Made by a program: the position numbers and the translations under genes
Origin: Usitatibacteraceae bacterium
GTDB lineage: Bacteria; Pseudomonadota; Gammaproteobacteria; Burkholderiales; Usitatibacteraceae
Direction of reading: 5' to 3'
DNA length: 40,301 nucleotides
Assembly: GCA_044221765.1 (NCBI GenBank)
Contig: JBGAOO010000001.1
Span: 1 to 40,301, forward strand
Part shown: one piece after another, positions 7,722 through 38,919 of the stretch
How the letters are laid out: the number at the start of each line of letters is the position of its first letter
Numbering within the stretch: the first letter of the stretch is position 1
Notes under the pieces: generated by a model
Seen by the model: the letters and a program-made list of their open reading frames with translations, nothing else
Databases searched by the model: none
What the model was told of the DNA's origin: nothing

Positions 7722-8614
7722 GGGCGGCCGATCTCGTCCGCCTCGTCGCGCTCGCGGCGATCTGGGGCGGCTCGTATCTCTTCATGCGCATCGCCGTGCC
7801 CCACGTGGGCGCGGCCTGGCTCGTCGAAGGGCGCACGCTCGCCGGCGGCCTCGTGATGGCCGCCTTCCTCGTCGCCACGCAGCGCGGCTCGGGCCTGGCG
7901 AGGCACTGGCGCGGCTACCTCGTGATGGGCGTGGTGGGCGTCGCGGCGCCCTTCTGGCTGATCGGCACCGCGGTGAAGACCATCGACGCCTCGACGGCCG
8001 CGATCCTGAACGCCACCTCGCCCATCTTCTCGGCGATCGTCGCCGCGATCTGGATCCGCGAGCGCCTCACGGCGGAGAAGGTCGCGGGCATCGCGCTCTC
8101 GATCGCGGGCATCGCGGTGCTCGTGGGCTGGACGCCCAGGCCGATGACGCACGCGGAGCTGCTCGCATGCGCGATGTCGCTCACGGCCTGCGCCTGCTAC
8201 GGATTCATCGCGGTGTTCACGAAGGTGCACATGAAGGACGCGCCCTCGGCGGCCCTCTCGGCGGCCAGCTGCCTCGTGGCGGCCCTCGCGATGGCGCCCT
8301 TCACGCCGTGGGAGGTGCTCGCCTCTCCCGTGCCCGCGGGCGCCTGGCTCGCCGTGCTAGCGCTCGGCGTGGTGTGCACCGGCTACGCGTTCATCCTCTA
8401 CTATCGCCTCATCCGCGAGCTCGGGCCCGTGAAGGCGCTCACGGTGACGCTGCTCGTGCCCGTGTTCGGCATCCTCTGGGGCGTGCTCTTCCTGGGCGAT
8501 CCCCTCACGCCGGGGCGGGTGGCGGGGTGCGCGATCGTGCTGGCGGGGTGTGCTCTCGCGCTGGGGCTGATGCGATTGCCGGGGCGGCGGGGAGTGACGC
8601 TGCCCAAGAGCTAG
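7718..8614 (+). CDS. DMT superfamily (EamA-like) transporter
   Basis: 10-TM pattern with two EamA halves. N-terminus (TTG)RAADLVRLVALAAIWGGSYLFMRI. The TTG start at 7718 overlaps the ogt stop. The last ~7 codons and the TAG stop lie inside the left arm of repeat element E1. Confidence 0.8.
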   Translation: MRAADLVRLVALAAIWGGSYLFMRIAVPHVGAAWLVEGRTLAGGLVMAAFLVATQRGSGLARHWRGYLVMGVVGVAAPFWLIGTAVKTIDASTAAILNATSPIFSAIVAAIWIRERLTAEKVAGIALSIAGIAVLVGWTPRPMTHAELLACAMSLTACACYGFIAVFTKVHMKDAPSAALSAASCLVAALAMAPFTPWEVLASPVPAGAWLAVLALGVVCTGYAFILYYRLIRELGPVKALTVTLLVPVFGILWGVLFLGDPLTPGRVAGCAIVLAGCALALGLMRLPGRRGVTLPKS

Positions 8615-8802
8615 GACACGGATGAACACGGATGAACACGGATAAGGGCGAATGTGTCCGGGGCTGTTTCTCCGCCGTGAGAATTGCGGGCATCGATTGC
8701 AAGCCACCACGGTTCGACGAAGCGGGCTGAATGCCGCCTATCACGAATCAATCCGTGTTCATCCGTGTTCATCCGTGTCCTAGCTCTTGGGTAGCGTCAC
8801 TC
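8592..8802. repeat. E1: 211-bp composite inverted-repeat element (52-nt arms, 107-nt core), no cargo
   Basis: Left arm 8592-8643 is GAGTGACGCTGCCCAAGAGCTAGGACACGGATGAACACGGATGAACACGGAT. The reverse complement of the right arm (8751-8802) is identical apart from one mismatch (GCTGCCC vs GCTACCC). Confidence 0.9.
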
Positions 8803-8823
8803 GAAACTGTTTAGCATGTCGCC

Positions 8824-10887
<2,064 letters not shown>

Positions 10888-10915
10888 CGACCCCCACGAT
10901 CCGCGAGGAGATAGC

Positions 10916-11239
10916 ATGAAGAAGTCCGCACTCATCATCGCCGCACTCGGCGCCGCCTTTGCCGCCGCTCCTGCCATGGCCAGCCTCGAGCTCGCCACCA
11001 AGAGCGCCTGCACCGCCTGCCACCAGGTCGACAAGAAGCTGGTCGGCCCCGCCTACCAGGAGGTCGCCGCCAAGTACAAGGGCAATGCCAAGGCCGAGGC
11101 GATGCTCATCGAGAAGGTCAAGAAGGGCGGCGTGGGCGTGTGGGGCCAGGTCCCGATGCCCCCGAACGCCGCCGTGAAGGACGAAGACGTGAAGACCCTC
11201 GTGAAGTGGGTCCTCGCCGGCGCGCCCGCCAAGAAGTAA
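10916..11239 (+). CDS. cytochrome c-551/c8 family (class ID) monohaem cytochrome
   Basis: Signal peptide MKKSALIIAALGAAFAAAPAMA, haem site CTACH, KKLVGPAYQEVAAKY and GVWGQVPMPPN. The SD GAGGAG lies 7-8 nt upstream of the ATG at 10916, so the track start at 10877 is rejected. Confidence 0.85.
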   Translation: MKKSALIIAALGAAFAAAPAMASLELATKSACTACHQVDKKLVGPAYQEVAAKYKGNAKAEAMLIEKVKKGGVGVWGQVPMPPNAAVKDEDVKTLVKWVLAGAPAKK

Positions 11240-11259
11240 GGTAAGCGCACGCTTACGCG

Positions 11260-11287
11260 AAAAAGCCGACCTCGCGTCGGCTTTTTC
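11260..11287 (+). terminator. rho-independent terminator after the cytochrome c gene
   Basis: AAAAAGCCGAC-CTCGC-GTCGGCTTTTT: a GC-rich stem followed by a T-run. Confidence 0.7.
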
Positions 11288-11409
11288 CATTCTGGGAAGG
11301 GCCTTGGGCCAAATTGACACGTCCGGGGGGCACTCCCATAATCTCCCGCCTGTTTTCCCCGCGTCGCCAGGCCCATCCGGCCCCAACACTTTCCCACCAG
11401 GAGATCTCG

Positions 11410-12693
11410 ATGAATCGTCCCACCCAGCTGGGCCTCGCCGTGCTGCTCGCCCTCGGCGTCGTCGCCTGCGGCTCCAAGGAAGAAGCCAAGCCCGCCCCGA
11501 AGGCCGATGCGGCCCCGGCCGGCATCACCGTCACGATCGCGCACGCGGGTCCGCTCACCGGCTCCATCGCCCACCTGGGCAAGGACGACGAGAACGGCGT
11601 CGCGCTCGCCGTGATGCACGCCAACGAGAAGAAGATCAGCCTGGGCGGCAAGCCCGTCACGTTCAAGATGGTGAGCGAGGACGACCAGGCCGACCCGAAG
11701 GTGGGCACCACCGTCGCGCAGAAGCTCGTGGACGCGAAGGTCGCCGCCGTCGTGGGCCACCTGAACTCGGGCGTGACCATCCCCGCCTCCGAGATCTACA
11801 ACAAGGCCGGCATCCCGGTGATCTCGGGCTCGGCCACCAACCCGACCCTCACCGAGCGCGGCCTGAAGACCGTCTTCCGCACCGTCGGCCGCGACGACCA
11901 GCAGGGCCCGGCCATCGCCGCCTACATCGCCGGCGAGCTGAAGGGCAAGAAGGTCGCCCTGGTCGACGACAAGACCGCGTACGGCGAGGGCCTCGCGAAC
12001 GAGGTGGAGAAGGCCCTGAAGGCGGCCAAGGTCACCATCGTCACGCGCGAGCGCACCACGGACAAGGAAACCGACTTCAAGGCCGTGCTCACGAAGATCA
12101 AGGGCAAGAACCCGGACGTCGTCTTCCACGGCGGCATGGACGCCACCGGCGGCCCGATGCTCAAGCAGGCCCGGGAACTGGGCATCAAGGCCGTCTTCGC
12201 CTTCGGCGACGGCGCCTGCACGGACGAGATGTCCAAGCTGGCCGGCGCGGCCTCCGAGGGCTTCGCCTGCTCGCAGGCCGGCCTGCCCGCCGTCGCGGCG
12301 AGCAAGGAGTTCCAGGACGCGTTCAAGGCCAAGTTCGGCGAGATCAAGCAGTACGCCCCGTACTTCTACGACGGCGCCATGGCGATGATCGAGGCCATGA
12401 AGAAGGCCGATTCCGCCGACCCCGCCAAGTTCGCCCCGAAGATCTTCGAGGTGAGCTTCCAGGGCGCCACGGGCAAGGTCGAGTTCGACGCCAAGGGCGA
12501 CCGCAAGGACGCGGAGATGACCATCTTCCGCATGGGCAAGGACGGCAAGATCGCCCCGGTGGCGATCGTGAAGAACGGCGTGTCCTCGCCCTTCGCGCAG
12601 CCGGCGGCGCCCGTCGCCGCCCCGGCCGCCGAGGCGAAGAAGGACGAGCCCGCGAAGCCCGCCGAGAAGAAGGCCGAGGAAAAGAAGAAGTAG
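11410..12693 (+). CDS. livK: branched-chain amino acid ABC transporter substrate-binding lipoprotein (LivK/LivJ family) with a Lys/Ala/Pro-rich C-terminal tail
   Basis: Lipobox LALGVVAC, then the type I periplasmic binding fold pattern (IAHAGPLTGSIAHLGKD..., VVGHLNSGVT, ALVDDKTAYGEGLA). SD CAGGAG before the ATG at 11410. First gene of a livHMGF cluster. Confidence 0.9.
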   Translation: MNRPTQLGLAVLLALGVVACGSKEEAKPAPKADAAPAGITVTIAHAGPLTGSIAHLGKDDENGVALAVMHANEKKISLGGKPVTFKMVSEDDQADPKVGTTVAQKLVDAKVAAVVGHLNSGVTIPASEIYNKAGIPVISGSATNPTLTERGLKTVFRTVGRDDQQGPAIAAYIAGELKGKKVALVDDKTAYGEGLANEVEKALKAAKVTIVTRERTTDKETDFKAVLTKIKGKNPDVVFHGGMDATGGPMLKQARELGIKAVFAFGDGACTDEMSKLAGAASEGFACSQAGLPAVAASKEFQDAFKAKFGEIKQYAPYFYDGAMAMIEAMKKADSADPAKFAPKIFEVSFQGATGKVEFDAKGDRKDAEMTIFRMGKDGKIAPVAIVKNGVSSPFAQPAAPVAAPAAEAKKDEPAKPAEKKAEEKKK

Positions 12694-12710
12694 CCCTCGC
12701 CCCACGGGAG

Positions 12711-12740
12711 AACGGCACCGGCGACGGTGCCGTTTTTTTT
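12711..12740 (+). terminator. intra-operon rho-independent terminator/attenuator between livK and livH
   Basis: AACGGCACCG-GCGA-CGGTGCCGTTTTTTTT: a perfect 9-bp GC-rich stem followed by T8. Confidence 0.7.
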
Positions 12741-12783
12741 GGGACTGCGTAGAATCGGCCCATCGCCAACGAGGAGTGCCGCC

Positions 12784-13782
12784 CTGGATACCTTCCTGCA
12801 GCAGGTGGTGAACGGCCTCACGCTCGGCAGCGTGTACGCGGTCGTCGCCCTGGGCTACACGATGGTGTACGGGATCATCCAGCTCATCAACTTCGCGCAC
12901 GGCGAGGTGGTGATGATCGGCTGCATGGTGGCCTTCTCCGTCATCGTCGCGCTCGCGCCGACGGGCCTGCCCCCGCTCTTGATCGTGGGCGCGGGCATCC
13001 TCGTGGCCGTGCCCGCCTGCATGGCGGTCGGCTACGTGGTCGAGCGCGTGGCGTACCGGCCCCTGCGCACCGCCCCGCGCCTCGCCCCGCTCATCACCGC
13101 GATCGGCGTGTCGATCGTGCTGCAGCACCTGGCCCTGCTCGTGTGGAGCCGCAACATCATCGCCTTCCCCCAGATCATCGAGCTGAAGCTCGTGCACCTG
13201 GGCACCAGCGAGACGAGCGCGGCCATCTCCAACATCCAGATCGCGATCATCCTCACCTCCTTCGCGATGATGGGGGGCCTGCTCGCGCTCGTGTACCGCA
13301 CGAAGCTCGGCATCGCGATGCGCGCCACCTCGCAGAACCCGGTGGTGGCGGGCCTCATGGGCGTGGACATCAACCGGGTCATCTCCGCGACGTTCGTGAT
13401 CGGCGCGGCCCTGGGCGCGATGGCGGGCGTCATGGTCGGCAGCTACTACGGCATCGCGCACTACCAGATGGGCTTCCTCCTGGGCCTCAAGGCCTTCAGC
13501 GCCGCGGTGCTCGGGGGCATCGGCAACCTCGCGGGCGCGGTGCTCGGGGGCATCCTCATGGGGCTCATCGAGTCGCTCGGCGCGGGCTACGTGGGCGACT
13601 TCACCAACGTGTGCACGCTCGATGCGTTCCTGCCCGGATTCGCGGAGGTCTGCGCGGCGAGCCCCGAGTCGAGCCTCTTCGGCTCCAACTACGAGGATGT
13701 CTATGCGTTCATCGTGCTGATCCTGGTGCTCGTCTTCCGGCCCTCGGGGCTGCTGGGCGAGCGTGTCGGCGACCGGGCGTAG
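12784..13782 (+). CDS. livH: branched-chain amino acid ABC transporter permease LivH
   Basis: (L)DTFLQQVVNGLTLGSVYAVVALGYTMVYGIIQLINFAHGE is the canonical LivH N-terminus. The homologous Met position is a CTG at 12784, preceded by GAGGAG at a 7-nt spacing. The only canonical in-frame starts (GTG 12727, TTG 12739) lie within the terminator hairpin and its T-run (12711-12740), so the start is uncertain. Confidence 0.8.
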   Translation: MDTFLQQVVNGLTLGSVYAVVALGYTMVYGIIQLINFAHGEVVMIGCMVAFSVIVALAPTGLPPLLIVGAGILVAVPACMAVGYVVERVAYRPLRTAPRLAPLITAIGVSIVLQHLALLVWSRNIIAFPQIIELKLVHLGTSETSAAISNIQIAIILTSFAMMGGLLALVYRTKLGIAMRATSQNPVVAGLMGVDINRVISATFVIGAALGAMAGVMVGSYYGIAHYQMGFLLGLKAFSAAVLGGIGNLAGAVLGGILMGLIESLGAGYVGDFTNVCTLDAFLPGFAEVCAASPESSLFGSNYEDVYAFIVLILVLVFRPSGLLGERVGDRA

Positions 13783-13790
13783 CTTGGCGT

Positions 13791-14284
13791 TAGTGAGTTA
13801 CGCCACCCAGAGGTGGGGACACGGATGAACACGGATGGACACGGATATTGGATTGAAGGGGCAAGCGGACGTTTCACGTTTCCCGAAGTGTCATCGGTGC
13901 AGCGTTTCGGGTAGCGAACTCCCTTGGTGTCGGGTTCCTGGAAAAGGTCTATGAGAACGCACTTGCGATCGAGCTACGCCTTGCCGGCCATGAAGTCGAG
14001 CAGCAACGCACGGTCGACGTGCGATACCGATGCGAGATCGTCGGCATCTACCACGCGGACCTCGTGGTCGACCGCTGCCTCATCGTCGAGCTCAAGGTGG
14101 CCGAATCCCTGTCCGCCGGTCACAAGGCGCAATGTCTCAATTCCCTCAGGGCATCGGGCCTCGATACCGGCTTGGTCATCAACTTCGGCCGGCCACGCCT
14201 CGAAATCCACCGCATCCTGTCCTGAGCGATCCCTCGACTCATCCGTGTTCATCCGTGTCCCCGCCTTCGGGGCGGCGTCACTCC
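13791..14284. mobile_element. E2: cargo-bearing member of the inverted-repeat family, enclosing a GxxExxY gene
   Basis: Left arm 13791-13846 is TAGTGAGTTACGCCACCCAGAGGTGGGGACACGGATGAACACGGATGGACACGGAT. Right arm 14241-14284 is ATCCGTGTTCATCCGTGTCCCCGCCTTCGGGGCGGCGTCACTCC, an imperfect reverse complement. The interior is visibly lower in GC and GC3 than the flanking liv genes. Confidence 0.8.
13857..14225 (+). pseudogene. GxxExxY protein (PD-(D/E)XK nuclease fold, PDDEXK_3/TIGR04256-like), nearly full length but without a usable start codon
   Basis: The frame reads ..SRSVIGAAFRVANSLGVGFLEKVYENALAIELRLAGHEVEQQRTVDVRYRCEIVGIYHADLVVDRCLIVELKVAESLSAGHKAQCLNSLRASGLDTGLVINFGRPRLEIHRILS*. It contains the GxxExxY motif and a D..(I/V)ELK nuclease core. 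There is no ATG, GTG or TTG in frame between the stop at 13854-13856 and GTG 14019. The 68-aa track ORF is only the C-terminal half. Confidence 0.75.
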
Positions 14285-14312
14285 CCGCCGATAGCCCGGC
14301 CACTACCGCCAA

Positions 14313-15401
14313 GTGACCATGGGCACCCTGTCCGCGCTTCGCGAGGATCCCCGCCTGAAATGGGCCGGGATCGCCCTCATCGCGATCGCGCTCGTGGCCC
14401 TGCCCTTCGCGCTCGCGATGGCGGGCACCGCGTGGGTGCGCATCACGAACCTCGCCATCCTCTTCGTGCTCCTGTCGCTGGGCCTGAACATCGTCGTGGG
14501 CTTCGCCGGGCTGCTCGACCTGGGCTACATCGCCTTCTATGCCGTGGGCGCCTACGTGTACGCGCTCCTCGCCTCGCCGCACTTCGGCCTGCACCTGCCG
14601 TGGTGGGCCATCCTGCCCATCGGCGCGGCGGTGGCCTGCCTGTTCGGCGTGCTGCTGGGCACGCCCACGCTCAAGCTGCGCGGGGACTACCTCGCCATCG
14701 TGACGCTGGGCTTCGGCGAGATCATCCGCATCTTCCTGAACAACCTCTCCGAGCCCTTCAACCTCACCAACGGCCCGAAGGGCATCGCCACCATCGACCC
14801 GGTGCGCTTCCTGGGCATCGACTTCGGCGTGGCCTCGCCCCTGGGCCCGCTCGTGGCCACGGAGACGGTCAAGTACTACTACTTCCTGCTCGCGGTGCTG
14901 CTCGTGGTGATCGTCGTGAACCTGCGCCTGCAGGATTCGCGCATCGGCCGCGCGTGGGAGGCGATCCGCGAGGACGAGATGGCCGCCCGCGCCATGGGCA
15001 TCAACACCACGCGCATGAAGCTGCTCGCCTTCGCGATGGGTGCCTCCTTCGGCGGCATCGCCGGGGGCATGTTCTCCGCGATCCAGGGCTTCATCAGCCC
15101 CGAGAGCTTCATCCTCACCGAGAGCGTCATGGTGCTCGCCATGGTCGTGCTGGGCGGGATGGGCAACATCTGGGGCGTGATCCTGGGCGCGGTGCTGCTC
15201 TCCTTCGTGCCGGAGATCCTGCGCTACACCGTGCAGCCGGCGCAGCTCTGGCTCTTCGGCCGCTCGATCATCGACCCCGAGGTGATCCGCATGCTGCTCT
15301 TCGGCCTGGCGATGGTGGTGATGATGCTGGTGCGCCCGGCCGGCCTCTTCCCCTCGGCGGTGAGGAAGCGCGAGCTCGCGCGCGGGGACGACGACGAATG
15401 A
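14313..15401 (+). CDS. livM: branched-chain amino acid ABC transporter permease LivM
   Basis: 362 aa, polytopic. GLNIVVGFAGLLDLGYIAFYAVGAY and LRGDYLAIVTLGFGEIIR are LivM signatures. Confidence 0.9.
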   Translation: MTMGTLSALREDPRLKWAGIALIAIALVALPFALAMAGTAWVRITNLAILFVLLSLGLNIVVGFAGLLDLGYIAFYAVGAYVYALLASPHFGLHLPWWAILPIGAAVACLFGVLLGTPTLKLRGDYLAIVTLGFGEIIRIFLNNLSEPFNLTNGPKGIATIDPVRFLGIDFGVASPLGPLVATETVKYYYFLLAVLLVVIVVNLRLQDSRIGRAWEAIREDEMAARAMGINTTRMKLLAFAMGASFGGIAGGMFSAIQGFISPESFILTESVMVLAMVVLGGMGNIWGVILGAVLLSFVPEILRYTVQPAQLWLFGRSIIDPEVIRMLLFGLAMVVMMLVRPAGLFPSAVRKRELARGDDDE

Positions 15402-16189
15402 GCGCCGCCGCGCCCATCCTCGAGATCGAGCACGTCACCAAGCGCTTCGGCGGGCTCACCGCGCTCTCCGGGGTGAGCTTCTCCATCCGCCGCGGCGAGA
15501 TCTACGGCCTCATCGGCCCCAACGGCGCGGGCAAGACCACGCTCTTCAACGTGCTCACCGGCCTGTACCGCCACGACGAGGGCCAGTTCCGCTTCGAGGG
15601 CGCGGCGCTGCAGGACGCGACGCCGGACCGCATCGCCGCGCTCGGCATCGCCCGCACCTTCCAGAACATCCGCCTGTTCGCGAACCTCTCCGCGCTGGAG
15701 AACGTGATGATCGGCCGGCACGTGCGCACGAAGGCCGGCGTGCTGGGCGCCATCCTGCGCGATCCGCGCACGCGCGCCGAGGAGGCCGCGATCAACCGAC
15801 GCGCCCACGAGCTGCTCGACTACGTGGGCATCGGCGCGCGCGGCAACGAGCTCGCCCGCCACCTGCCCTACGGGGACCAGCGCCGCCTGGAGATCGCCCG
15901 CGCCCTTGCCACGGACCCGCGCCTCATCGCCCTCGACGAGCCCGCGGCGGGCATGAACGCCACGGAGAAGCAGGAGCTGCGCGTGCTCCTGGAATCCATC
16001 CGCCGCGACGGCACCACCATCCTCATCATCGAGCACGACATGCGCCTGGTGCTGGGCCTGTGCGACCGCGTGCTCGTGCTCGACTACGGCAAGCGCATCG
16101 CCGAGGGCGTCCCCGCCGACGTGCGGCGCGATCCGAAGGTGATCGAGGCTTACCTCGGCGCGCAACATGCCGCGACCGATGTCGAGTGA
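15398..16189 (+). CDS. livG: branched-chain amino acid ABC transporter ATP-binding protein LivG
   Basis: Walker A GPNGAGKTT, signature LPYGDQRRLEIARAL, Walker B LIALDEPAAGM. The ATG overlaps the livM stop (ATGA). Its TGA stop (16187-16189) lies inside the GAGTGAC start of element E3. Confidence 0.9.
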   Translation: MSAAAPILEIEHVTKRFGGLTALSGVSFSIRRGEIYGLIGPNGAGKTTLFNVLTGLYRHDEGQFRFEGAALQDATPDRIAALGIARTFQNIRLFANLSALENVMIGRHVRTKAGVLGAILRDPRTRAEEAAINRRAHELLDYVGIGARGNELARHLPYGDQRRLEIARALATDPRLIALDEPAAGMNATEKQELRVLLESIRRDGTTILIIEHDMRLVLGLCDRVLVLDYGKRIAEGVPADVRRDPKVIEAYLGAQHAATDVE

Positions 16190-16462
16190 CGCTACCCAAA
16201 GGCAAGGACACGGATGAACACGGATGAACACGGATCAAAATCGAATGGAGCGCCACGAACCGATCGCTGTTGCGTGCTGTTCGACCGCTCATGAGCCACT
16301 GAATGCCGTGCGGACCGGATTGGCCATCGCAATTTCAGAATCCATCCGTGTTCATCCGTGTTCATCCGTGTCCTTGCCTTTGGGTCGCGTCCTCCCCGCA
16401 GTGTCCTTGCCTTTGGGTCGCGTCACTCCCCGCATGTCCCGGCCTTTGGGTAGCGTCACTCC
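16184..16462. repeat. E3: 212-bp inverted-repeat element (52-nt arms, 108-nt core) plus two extra tandem copies of the 33-nt terminal module
   Basis: Left arm 16184-16235 is GAGTGACGCTACCCAAAGGCAAGGACACGGATGAACACGGATGAACACGGAT. Right arm 16344-16395. The module GTGTCCTTGCCTTTGGGTCGCGTC(A)CTCC recurs at 16368, 16401 and (diverged) 16434, a 33-nt period. Confidence 0.9.
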
Positions 16463-16465
16463 CCC

Positions 16466-17173
16466 ATGCCCATGCTGAAACTGGAAAGCGTCGAGGTCCA
16501 CTACGGCGGCATCCGCGCCGTGAAGGGCATCGACCTGTACGTGGAGCAGGGCGAGCTGGTGTGCCTCATCGGCGCCAACGGCGCGGGCAAGACGACCACG
16601 CTGCGCGCCATCACGGGCCTCGCCCACGCGAGCGGGCGCATCGTCTACGACGGCGAGGACATCGCGGGCCTGAAGCCGCACCAGATCGCCCGCAAGGGCC
16701 TCGCCCTCGTGCCCGAGGGCCGCGGCGTCTTCCCGCAGCTCACGATCGACGAGAACCTCGCGATGGGTGCCTACGCGCGCGGCGACAAGGCGGGCATCGC
16801 CGCCGACACCGAGCGCGTGTTCCACCTCTTCCCGCGGCTCAAGGAGCGGCGCCGGCAGACGGCGGGCACGATGTCCGGCGGCGAGCAGCAGATGCTCGCG
16901 ATCGGCCGGGCGCTCATGGGCCGGCCGCGCCTGCTGCTGCTCGACGAGCCGAGCATGGGCCTCGCGCCCATCATGGTCGAGCGCATCTTCGAGGTGATCC
17001 GCCTCATCGCCTCCGAGGGCGTCACGATGCTGCTGGTCGAGCAGAACGCGCGCCTCGCGCTGGAGGCGAGCCGGCGCGCGTACGTGCTCGAGAGCGGCCT
17101 GGTCACCCTCTCGGGCGCGGCGGCCGACCTCCTGCACGACCCGCAGGTGCGCAGCGCCTACCTCGGGGAGTGA
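16466..17173 (+). CDS. livF: branched-chain amino acid ABC transporter ATP-binding protein LivF
   Basis: MPMLKLESVEVHYGGIRAVKGIDL.., Walker A GANGAGKTT, signature MSGGEQQMLAIGRAL, Walker B LLLLDEPSMGL. The start could be the second ATG at 16472. Confidence 0.9.
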   Translation: MPMLKLESVEVHYGGIRAVKGIDLYVEQGELVCLIGANGAGKTTTLRAITGLAHASGRIVYDGEDIAGLKPHQIARKGLALVPEGRGVFPQLTIDENLAMGAYARGDKAGIAADTERVFHLFPRLKERRRQTAGTMSGGEQQMLAIGRALMGRPRLLLLDEPSMGLAPIMVERIFEVIRLIASEGVTMLLVEQNARLALEASRRAYVLESGLVTLSGAAADLLHDPQVRSAYLGE

Positions 17174-30597: not shown

Positions 30598-34292
<3,695 letters not shown>

Positions 34293-38328: not shown

Positions 38329-38919
38329 TCAGTCGTGGTGCCGGCCGCGGCCCATCCCCGCGCCCATGCCGCCCATCGCGCCCGGGCCATGCATCCCGCC
38401 CCGCTGGTCGATGATCGCCTTCTGCTCCTTCGTGAGCGAACCGTAGAGCTCGCCCAGGGACTTCGCCATCGACGCCATCGCCGCGCCGCGCTGCTGCATC
38501 TGCGCCGCGTGCTGCGCCATGCGCTCGGGTGCCGTCGGCACCGCCGCGCCTTCCTGCGCCTTGGCACGCGCGGGATGCAGGGCGCCCGCCTGCGATTTCG
38601 TCGCGTCCGCGAACTTCTTCCAGGCGCCTTCCTGGTCGGCGGTGATCTTCAGCCGGGATTTCAGGATGACCAGGTGGGCTTCCGCGCGGGCGGCGGGATC
38701 CACGTCGGCCATCGGGCCGTGCCCCGGGCCCATGCCGCGACCGGCGCCCGGGCCGTGCCCCGGTCCCATGCCCATGCCGTGCCCGGGACCCATGCCCATG
38801 CCCTGCCCGGGACCCATGCCATGGCCGGGGCCGCCCGCGGGTTGCGCCTGCGCGAGCGCCGAGAAAGCCAATGCCACGCCGGCGACGAGCCCGGCCACTG
38901 CCTTGTGATGTCGATTCAT
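38329..38919 (-). CDS. periplasmic Spy/CpxP/ZraP-family (LTxxQ) protein with Gly/His/Met-rich repeats
   Basis: Signal peptide MNRHHKAVAGLVAGVALAFSALAQA. N-terminal GPGHGMGPGQGMGMGPGHGMGMGPGHGPGAGRGMGPGHGP. Helical core with LTKEQKAII. C-terminal GGMHGPGAMGGMGAGMGRGRHHD resembles the ZraP tail. Divergent from an OmpR-type RR/HK pair. Confidence 0.8.
   Translation of the reverse strand: MNRHHKAVAGLVAGVALAFSALAQAQPAGGPGHGMGPGQGMGMGPGHGMGMGPGHGPGAGRGMGPGHGPMADVDPAARAEAHLVILKSRLKITADQEGAWKKFADATKSQAGALHPARAKAQEGAAVPTAPERMAQHAAQMQQRGAAMASMAKSLGELYGSLTKEQKAIIDQRGGMHGPGAMGGMGAGMGRGRHHD

Follow-up and report, generated by a model that had tools for sequence, protein, structure and literature searches.

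Background

What is the 211-bp hairpin that separates two co-oriented genes of a Usitatibacteraceae bacterium, and how do structures of the same kind come to occupy, and to vanish from, other gene junctions? Here we examine this element, E1, in a 40,301-nucleotide stretch of contig JBGAOO010000001.1 (the whole of which is called the window below, or W where it is set beside other genomes), and report that E1 is a gene-less copy of a very widespread and apparently undescribed family of hairpin cassettes, the complete members of which bear a small gene for a nuclease-fold GxxExxY protein. Cassettes of this family are gained, lost and rewritten in concert within genomes. We describe from direct observation their architecture, their association with GxxExxY, their placement at gene junctions, their turnover and the uniformity of their arms within a genome, and we lean, if only by a little, towards viewing them as promoterless selfish cassettes built like the intervening sequences of 23S rRNA, the transcripts of which RNase III would cleave and the arms of which the GxxExxY protein would act on in trans.

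Anatomy of E1 and its copies in the window

An inverted-repeat search returns two plus-strand arms of 52 nt each for E1 (8592-8643 and 8751-8802), 98% complementary with one G:T and 107 nt apart, just as the first-pass annotation of this DNA had described the element (52-nt arms with one mismatch around a 107-nt core). The left arm is made up of an outer part at 8592-8615 (GAGTGACGCTGCCCAAGAGCTAGG) followed by three decamers at 8616-8643 (ACACGGATGA x 2.8), and the right arm mirrors it with the single G:T, ending 21 nt 5' of the ATG (8824) of a DUF255/thioredoxin gene. A lineage-specific outer part plus three tandem decamers (CACGGATGAA) is the common anatomy of the arms, every one of which contains the 10-nt unit ACACGGATGA in 2.8 copies as called by Tandem Repeats Finder (TRF); CACGGATNNNCACGGA, at up to two mismatches, occurs 13 times in the window against 1.7 expected. 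Folded as RNA, E1 (a 219-nt stretch) reaches -143.9 kcal/mol, compared with -75.3 +/- 4.7 for shuffled sequences (z = -14.6), and the corresponding DNA fold stands at z = -13.8. Neither the core of E1 (z = +0.33) nor that of its copy E3 (z = +0.1) beats shuffles on its own. The E1 loop (8644-8750, plus strand, 107 nt) has a G+C content of 59%, against 71% for the contig and 56-61% for the elements as a group, and has no relative above chance among the other cores or in the GxxExxY gene body.

Upstream of E1 lies an EamA transporter gene, the stop codon of which (TAG, 8612-8614) falls within the left arm. In two relatives, L122 and L123, EamA ends in cggcgggg|TAA and in the window it reads cggcgggg|AGTGACGC, the TAA of the relatives marking the exact point at which the E1 arm begins; since the EamA frame of the window enters the arm at this point, the element has altered the C-terminus of its host protein. 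A promoter scan at E1 gave nothing, no terminator-like site was found there in a search for intrinsic terminators (the stem is followed by cgaaactg), and Rfam has no match in the window at gathering score and none with E up to 1 on any element (8400-16600). A TAGCAT motif is conserved 6-9 nt 5' of the DUF255 ATG (window 8808-8823; L122, L123, L126 and L279) in filled and empty genomes alike, and in L279 the TAG of this motif is the EamA stop codon.

The same architecture recurs, as previously annotated, between livG and livF. This copy, E3, has a left arm at 16184-16235 that is 92% identical to the left arm of E1 and holds the livG stop (TGA, 16187-16189) in its outermost pairs (GAGTGA), a 108-nt loop at 16236-16343 that is unrelated to the loop of E1, and a right arm at 16344-16391 that, together with its repeats (16344-16464), reaches to the start of livF at 16466. 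Three tandem 33-nt copies of the outer right arm are present (16368-16464, 92% matches), and the same three are found in strain L121; they offer alternative pairing partners for the left arm. Another copy, E2, lies between livH and livM and has a gene between its arms, which had also been recognized and which we identify below as GxxExxY/PDDEXK_3. Its left arm (13795-13846) starts 12 nt 3' of the livH stop, its right arm (14239-14283) has two decamers where the sister strain L207 has three, the corresponding identity to the left arm of E1 is 81%, and to the right of the element the old junction TGAccATG (14314-14321) persists. E2 and E3 are on the plus strand like E1, and each of the three sits between co-oriented genes. 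The base of the stem holds the upstream stop codon in E1 and E3, and the next start codon follows the right arm at no more than about 20 nt, or no more than about 75 nt at E3, where the three 33-nt repeats intervene.

A degenerate fourth copy is also real (31770-31890, plus strand, between two minus-strand genes), although the reduced form that had been placed at about 31789-31905 proves to be a single left-type arm (31770-31821), with one decayed decamer array (GGACACGGATGGACACGGACCAGGACGGAT), followed by short GGGGAC.GTCCCC palindromes and lacking a right decamer arm. These copies make up a true repeat family in which, as had been argued, arms are conserved more strongly than loops (92% against 44% identity between E1 and E3). 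The colinear blocks said to be shared by the E1 and E3 cores are weak, with 44% identity overall and a borderline local alignment (p = 0.05), and 33 of 36 loop pairs compared across genomes do not rise above shuffles. Short motifs are the most that the E1 and E3 loops share with each other, with the loops at orthologous sites or with the GxxExxY gene body.

Gain, loss and remnants at orthologous junctions

A search with the DUF255 protein gave eight syntenic loci of 20-22 kb, at about 72-79% protein identity to the window. A neighbour-joining tree of two host proteins (DUF255 and LivF) takes the form (L125,(L280,(L124,(W,(L278,(L122,L123,(L126,L279))))))), with bootstraps of 98, 85, 96 and 92 on the main nodes and 67 for the grouping of L122, L123, L126 and L279. 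Some of these relatives come from error-prone assemblies, and L279 has fragmented genes.

Three junctions were compared: EamA/DUF255 (site 1), livH/livM (site 2) and livG/livF (site 3). W, L123 and L280 have elements with CACGGAT decamers at all three, and L122 has CGCCGAT decamers at all three, in each case with a gene enclosed at site 2. L124 carries CGCCGAT elements at site 2, with the gene, and at site 3; at its site 1 (L124:9960-10005) the element, the EamA stop and the spacer are gone and the EamA frame overlaps the DUF255 gene by 83 nt, which is an imprecise deletion and not a clean empty site. L278 is empty at site 1, has a CGCCGAT element with a 136-aa gene at site 2, and retains at site 3 a 31-nt livG/livF spacer with one CGCCGAT unit (16420-16455), apparently left over from a deleted element of the type that L278 carries. 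L125 has CACAGAT at sites 1 and 3 and, at site 2, a gene-bearing element with CGCCGAT outside and CGCGGAT/CGCAGAT inside. L126 and L279 are empty throughout, with TGAccATG or ATGA at site 2 and an overlapping GTGA at site 3, and these two fully empty genomes are nested among filled ones. Of the seven filled genomes, six were counted as filled at site 1 and six at site 3, none of them with a gene there, and every one of the seven carries the gene at site 2.

Presence/absence polymorphism at orthologous sites is therefore real (empty in L126 and L279, a remnant in L278, a deletion in L124), and the static local structure that the first-pass annotation had set against a mobile family is ruled out by the clean empty and remnant sites and by the nesting of the empty lineage. 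In W and its relatives alike, the stop codon of the upstream gene is part of the stem, which stops just short of the start codon that follows; the number of decamer units varies between strains. The earlier remark that no target-site duplication is obvious also holds, none being demonstrable when filled and empty junctions are compared: the TGAccATG that persists on the right side of E2, and the TAA...TTA at the boundaries of site 1 in three genomes, can each be explained by stop and start codons together with stem pairing.

The enclosed GxxExxY gene

The reading frame inside E2 (13835-14225, plus strand) matches PF13366 (PDDEXK_3; E = 8e-35, 120 bits, cut-off 22) and TIGR04256 ('GxxExxY protein'; E = 1e-36, 125.7 bits in NCBIfam, cut-off 35). 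In the window it is a pseudogene, shifted in frame by a tandem 7-nt duplication, ACGTTTC (13869-13875, 13876-13882); the shifted frame has no start codon of its own and its D...ExK motif can still be read. Strain L207, 99% identical, has an intact 127-aa GxxExxY gene without the 7-nt duplication and one decamer more in the right arm, differences that indicate ongoing slippage between strains. As judged from these sequences, E2 is a complete member of the cassette family with a recently inactivated gene. The enclosed gene is decaying in L280 as well as in W, though the additional G of L280 may be a sequencing error. Just 5' of the right arm in L123 (15300-15450), a unit of about 50 nt that comprises the 3' end of the GxxExxY gene and the sequence following it occurs three times in tandem.

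Gene and arm are physically joined in this lineage. The ATG (13835-13837) lies in the last decamer of the left arm, the intact gene starting within that decamer (ggATGgacacggat) to give MDTD..., and the genes of the relatives likewise begin in a decamer, giving MNTD... or MNADVTPMNAE.... Six residues of the protein are invariant (G31, E34, Y37, D73, E83 and K85), which belong to the GxxExxY and D...ExK motifs, and an AlphaFold2 (AF2) model with a predicted local distance difference test (pLDDT) score of 91 has the PD-(D/E)XK fold. The nearest solved folds, those of Cas4, lambda exonuclease and MGME1, are generic PD-(D/E)XK neighbours at a weak template-modelling (TM) score of about 0.5. A sequence search of the PDB with the protein returned no match, PADLOC matched no known defence family, and the one match in PHROGs, a marginal one, is to a family without known function. 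GxxExxY itself is a very large family, with 13,318 representatives at 50% identity (E up to 1e-3), and a 2012 survey of the PD-(D/E)XK superfamily lists the function of GxxExxY/PDDEXK_3 as unknown (PMC3424549).

Arm type follows the resident protein

With one exception, the decamer type is uniform within a genome, and decamer type is not monophyletic on the host tree, W, L123 and L280 having CACGGAT, L122, L124 and L278 CGCCGAT, and L125 CACAGAT. Across the seven filled genomes the decamer type instead tracks the type of the resident GxxExxY protein. Site-2 proteins are 74% (W-L123) and 69% (L122-L124) identical within a type and about 50% identical across types, and L122 and L123 differ in GxxExxY type though their host proteins are 86% identical.

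The outer arms differ between sites and between genomes, yet they pair within each element, the paired run beyond the decamers being 22/22 in window E1, 17 in site 1 of L123 and 13 in site 1 of L122. Window E3 and site 3 of L123 are separated by three compensated changes and by no single ones. The spacer to the left of site 2 (ATGCGTTATC.AGTTA) is common to all types, so that replacement seems to be confined to the arms and their cargo.

The family across phyla

The 17-mer ACACGGATGRACACGGA is present in at least 120 stretches of one-genome-per-species contigs, from Verrucomicrobiota, Planctomycetota, Acidobacteriota, Chloroflexota, Nitrospirota, Bacteroidota and several proteobacterial classes. 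Chance alone would be expected to give about 140 matches in 596 Gb, and these are not chance matches because 94 of the 120 loci have arrays of at least three units and 68 have a second, inverted array no more than 2.5 kb away. Inner distances between the inverted arrays cluster at 8-45 nt, about 60-130 nt, about 200 nt and about 370-500 nt. A GxxExxY reading frame stands at the arms in eight of these DNA-selected loci, and in a ninth (L077) the hairpins next to it are built of another unit type; for each gene-bearing copy there are about ten gene-less ones.

The converse sample, 80 metagenomic loci chosen by similarity to the GxxExxY protein alone, leads back to the hairpins. An inverted repeat with a score of at least 14 brackets the gene in 60 of the 79 evaluable loci, compared with 0/79 at that score in shuffles, where the maximum was 10. 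Among loci with bracketing arms, the left-arm period is 10 nt in 38 and 9 nt in three, and the units of the 60 loci (CGCAGAT, CACAGAT, CGCCGAT, CACGGAT and others, each followed by GAA) give the consensus CRCNGATGAA. E1, E2 and E3 have arms of this very kind, that is, inverted arms of at least two to three tandem units of about 10 nt of the CRCNGATGAA type. The upstream neighbour is co-oriented in 52 of 63 loci and its stop is often less than 40 nt from the arm, gene calls here being heuristic. Many other subfamilies close the array with GATAA, GATAG or GATTGA, and their gene begins beyond the arm. GxxExxY is the sole gene found repeatedly inside such arms.

Viral contigs of IMG/VR yielded 69 stretches with the 17-mer (L209-L277), 56 of them with at least three units and some contigs with three or four copies, and the GxxExxY gene is present in 0 of the 69. 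It is possible that these contigs mark a route of horizontal spread, or that they include host DNA.

Arrangement and content vary at several loci. In L077 (1140-1860) the GxxExxY gene stands between two small, complete hairpins of CACAGRG-type units, and in L100 (4900-5450) the order is arm, gene, then complete hairpin. Another widespread repeat, distinct from the decamers, begins gtcattctgagcgaagcgaag and translates into VILSEAK/CHPERSE-like peptides; it lies inside or beside the decamer arms at loci from Acidobacteria and Chloroflexi (L044:6802-7160, L048:3284-3540, L105 and L108) and may be another type of cargo. Other small genes beside or between decamer arms include those for a TacA-like antitoxin (PF08681) and a DUF2513 protein (L003:7140-7600, L008:5290-6440).

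Proposed mechanism

A cassette has about three tandem decamers in each arm, a variable outer part that lengthens the stem as far as the stop codon of the upstream gene and, in complete members, a promoterless gene of about 125 aa for a GxxExxY protein of PD-(D/E)XK fold. Such a cassette would be transcribed as part of its host operon, as no promoter was found at E1 and the elements are co-oriented with their hosts. A perfect RNA stem of about 50 bp is a standard substrate of RNase III, and the stem of about 50 bp that may form in the operon RNA is probably cut by this enzyme, by analogy with 23S rRNA intervening sequences. At the DNA level, the GxxExxY nuclease probably handles the decamer arms in trans, in the manner of the REP-associated tyrosine transposases (RAYTs) that act on REPINs, the hairpin-forming doublets of repetitive extragenic palindromes (REPs); this is suggested by the match between the arm type of gene-less copies and the type of the resident nuclease. 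Its action would drive the spread, replacement or homogenization of gene-less copies such as E1.

The termini may also spare the host. Each decamer contains ATGA and the element ends carry stops (GAGTGA...TCACTC, TAA...TTA); with an ATGA in each of three units at 10-nt spacing, a stop codon and an ATG are available in all three frames. Stops in every frame would let a cassette land at the 3' end of a gene in any reading frame without read-through, and the stops at the ends together with the ATGA of each decamer could keep the flanking host genes intact.

A bolder proposal, which we put forward as possible and no better than doubtful, is that of a very widespread and hitherto unrecognized two-part selfish system, in which a minimal GxxExxY nuclease recognizes arrays of its own type and inserts, excises and overwrites cassettes, in which ATGA decamers and stop termini serve as a frame-independent stop/restart adaptor at stop/start junctions, and of which the 23S rRNA intervening sequences would be the special case that landed in rRNA.

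Several observations weigh against the mechanism that we favour. Comparison of filled and empty junctions establishes no target duplication. As to selection at the RNA level, G:U mismatches number 24 against 19 for A:C, reading-frame gene calls being unreliable at high G+C. None of 208 loci lies in an rRNA context as judged by conserved rRNA motifs, so the link to intervening sequences is architectural only. Site 2 of L125 (16104-16570), with its nested types, breaks the rule of one type per genome, and L123 has a solo arm of CGCCGAT type (880-935), directly after the stop of a minus-strand gene, which, given the CACGGAT elements at its main sites, means that two families coexist in that genome. 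The start of the gene inside the arm is a feature of this lineage only and not a general one (the test for an in-frame ATG in the last decamer was confounded by matches that extend into the arm). Concerted arms could arise from ordinary RecA-mediated gene conversion between short repeats, and the three-site pattern could reflect repeated insertion at hot spots rather than rewriting.

Alternative explanations

The label first attached to E1 was that of a miniature inverted-repeat transposable element (MITE) or Correia-like element, a non-autonomous insertion-sequence derivative served by a conventional transposase elsewhere in the genome. Terminal inverted repeats, a small size (211 bp), the want of coding capacity and presence/absence polymorphism are all in keeping with it, and the TA...TA (TAA...TTA) that bounds site 1 in L122, L123 and L125 would fit a TA duplication. 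This TA...TA, however, follows automatically from a stem that pairs a stop codon, and it is absent from E1 and E3 of the window and from L280. The loops, moreover, are unrelated between copies of one genome the arms of which are 92% identical, the arms are tandem decamer arrays of number varying by slippage with a variable outer part, Correia features are lacking, and a GxxExxY gene is the sole one to recur inside the arms, so that the label is not supported and we hold such an origin to be highly improbable. Among the genes called in the eight syntenic 20-22 kb loci none belongs to a transposase family, and no parent insertion sequence is seen; the other genes of the window are not all annotated. 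An integron cassette of the attC type was considered and set aside, there being no integrase nearby and repeats on both sides of the gene.

Could the hairpins instead serve the host, as vertically inherited RNA elements comparable to the punctuation provided by REPs or bacterial interspersed mosaic elements (BIMEs), that is, as RNase III sites, mRNA stabilizers or translational-coupling devices, with GxxExxY an occasional passenger and the concerted changes due to ordinary gene conversion between repeats? In favour of such a role, these three junctions hold elements in genomes with as little as about 72% protein identity, the stems span stop to start codon exactly, pairing is kept through sequence change, and elements and hosts are co-oriented. 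Set against this are the clean loss of all three elements in the nested L126/L279 lineage with no visible replacement, the decay products in L278, in L124 and in the degenerate copy of the window (E4), the decay of the enclosed gene in W and L280, an element G+C content 10-15 points under that of the contig, and, as a sign of horizontal spread, the presence of the same decamers in viral contigs and across many phyla; we consider this explanation unlikely. Alternatively, a complete GxxExxY cassette might have invaded every site, E1 and E3 being what was left after deletion of the gene and nothing having moved in trans. Genes are indeed seen decaying (W, L280), remnants of shrinking size exist (L278 site 3, window E4) and loops are unrelated between copies, yet sites 1 and 3 are gene-less wherever filled while site 2 always has its gene, neither tblastn nor blastn detects any similarity between the loops and the GxxExxY gene body, gene-less copies prevail by about 10:1 among DNA-selected loci, and gene-less arms still switch type together with the resident gene. 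We give independent decay of this sort only a slim chance.

Relation to known elements

The closest architectural parallel to the selfish cassettes that we favour is offered by the intervening sequences of 23S rRNA in Coxiella burnetii and Leptospira, with their S23p four-helix-bundle frame. Like the cassettes, these have a long terminal inverted-repeat stem and tandem short repeats, variable in number between strains, 5' of a small, promoterless and often decaying frame; they too ride on a host transcript and are regarded as selfish. In Coxiella, a 28-bp terminal stem and three tandem GACAGAT units, the number of which varies between strains, precede a small decaying reading frame, and excision by RNase III has been demonstrated in vitro and by rapid amplification of cDNA ends (RACE) (PMC4990558). 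The string ACAGATGA is common to the Coxiella heptamer array and the CACAGATGAA decamer subtype. The two differ in location (between protein-coding genes for cassettes, in helix 25 or 45 of 23S rRNA for intervening sequences), in period (10 nt against 7 in Coxiella) and in cargo (GxxExxY of PD-(D/E)XK fold against S23p).

REPIN-RAYT systems share with the cassettes short hairpin-forming inverted doublets dispersed in intergenic DNA (PMC3116915, PMC3337134), as well as a dedicated small gene flanked by the same repeats, a correspondence between repeat type and resident gene, persistence over long times where the repeats sit and within-genome sequence populations. Their protein is an IS200-like Y1 transposase, whereas that of the cassettes has the PD-(D/E)XK fold (PF13366/TIGR04256), and a REP of 20-30 nt with a GTAG-type motif contrasts with arms built of tandem decamer arrays and a variable outer stem. 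Cassettes, unlike REPINs, enclose about 100 nt of loop and occupy stop/start junctions, and the link between their protein and their repeat is a putative one.

Correia elements and bacterial MITEs resemble the cassettes in being 100-250 bp long, intergenic, inverted at their ends and co-transcribed with their neighbours, and the Correia RNA hairpin is bound or cut by RNase III, with presence and absence varying between strains as in the cassettes (PMC2649163, PMC10969869). Correia elements are distinguished by a conserved core with a site for integration host factor (IHF), fixed 26-bp ends and a TA duplication; in cassettes, by contrast, the loops are unrelated, the arms are decamer arrays, no duplication can be demonstrated and the cognate gene is one of nuclease fold. 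Features of the Neisseria type were not found in the cassettes of this host, a betaproteobacterium of the Usitatibacteraceae group. Homing endonuclease genes, free-standing or intron-borne and including PD-(D/E)XK members such as I-Ssp6803I, are like the gene-bearing cassettes in being small nuclease-fold genes at a fixed chromosomal site that are cleanly absent in some relatives, with divergent same-site alleles that depart from the host tree and signs of a cycle of invasion, decay and loss. Cassettes differ from them in lacking an intron or intein context, in their long hairpin arms and in their gene-less copies at other sites. A cassette works like an intervening sequence set in an operon, and like a REPIN with a different enzyme, and is a member of neither family.

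Other repeats in the window

Two weak arm-like fragments, ATCCGTGcgtgaATCCGTT near the contig start (355-395) and GGGTAGCGCCACTC within a coding region (30905-30918), may be chance matches or old remnants. Tandem repeats called by TRF at 38713-38829 encode a GPGHGMGM repeat in the minus-strand protein at 38329-38919, and this looks like an ordinary coding repeat; we take the protein to be secreted and Spy/CpxP-like from its sequence (LTKEQ), and its neighbour to be a putative OmpR-type response regulator.

Conclusions

The literature searched contains no paper with these repeat strings and none that links GxxExxY/PDDEXK_3 to repeats. Curated descriptions of this family, or of the four-helix-bundle one, may refer to rRNA intervening sequences. 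Hairpins of this kind have consequences for the reading of genomes: they break metagenome assemblies, many gene-carrying contigs being shorter than 2 kb, and they yield spurious reading frames with peptides such as MNTD... and ...IRVHPC.... They also alter the C-termini of host proteins, the EamA protein of the window being one example. The link between the very large GxxExxY family and decamer-array hairpins at gene junctions gives the protein a concrete candidate substrate and, if true, would suggest an answer to the old question of what the 23S rRNA intervening sequences, and the reading frames within them, are.

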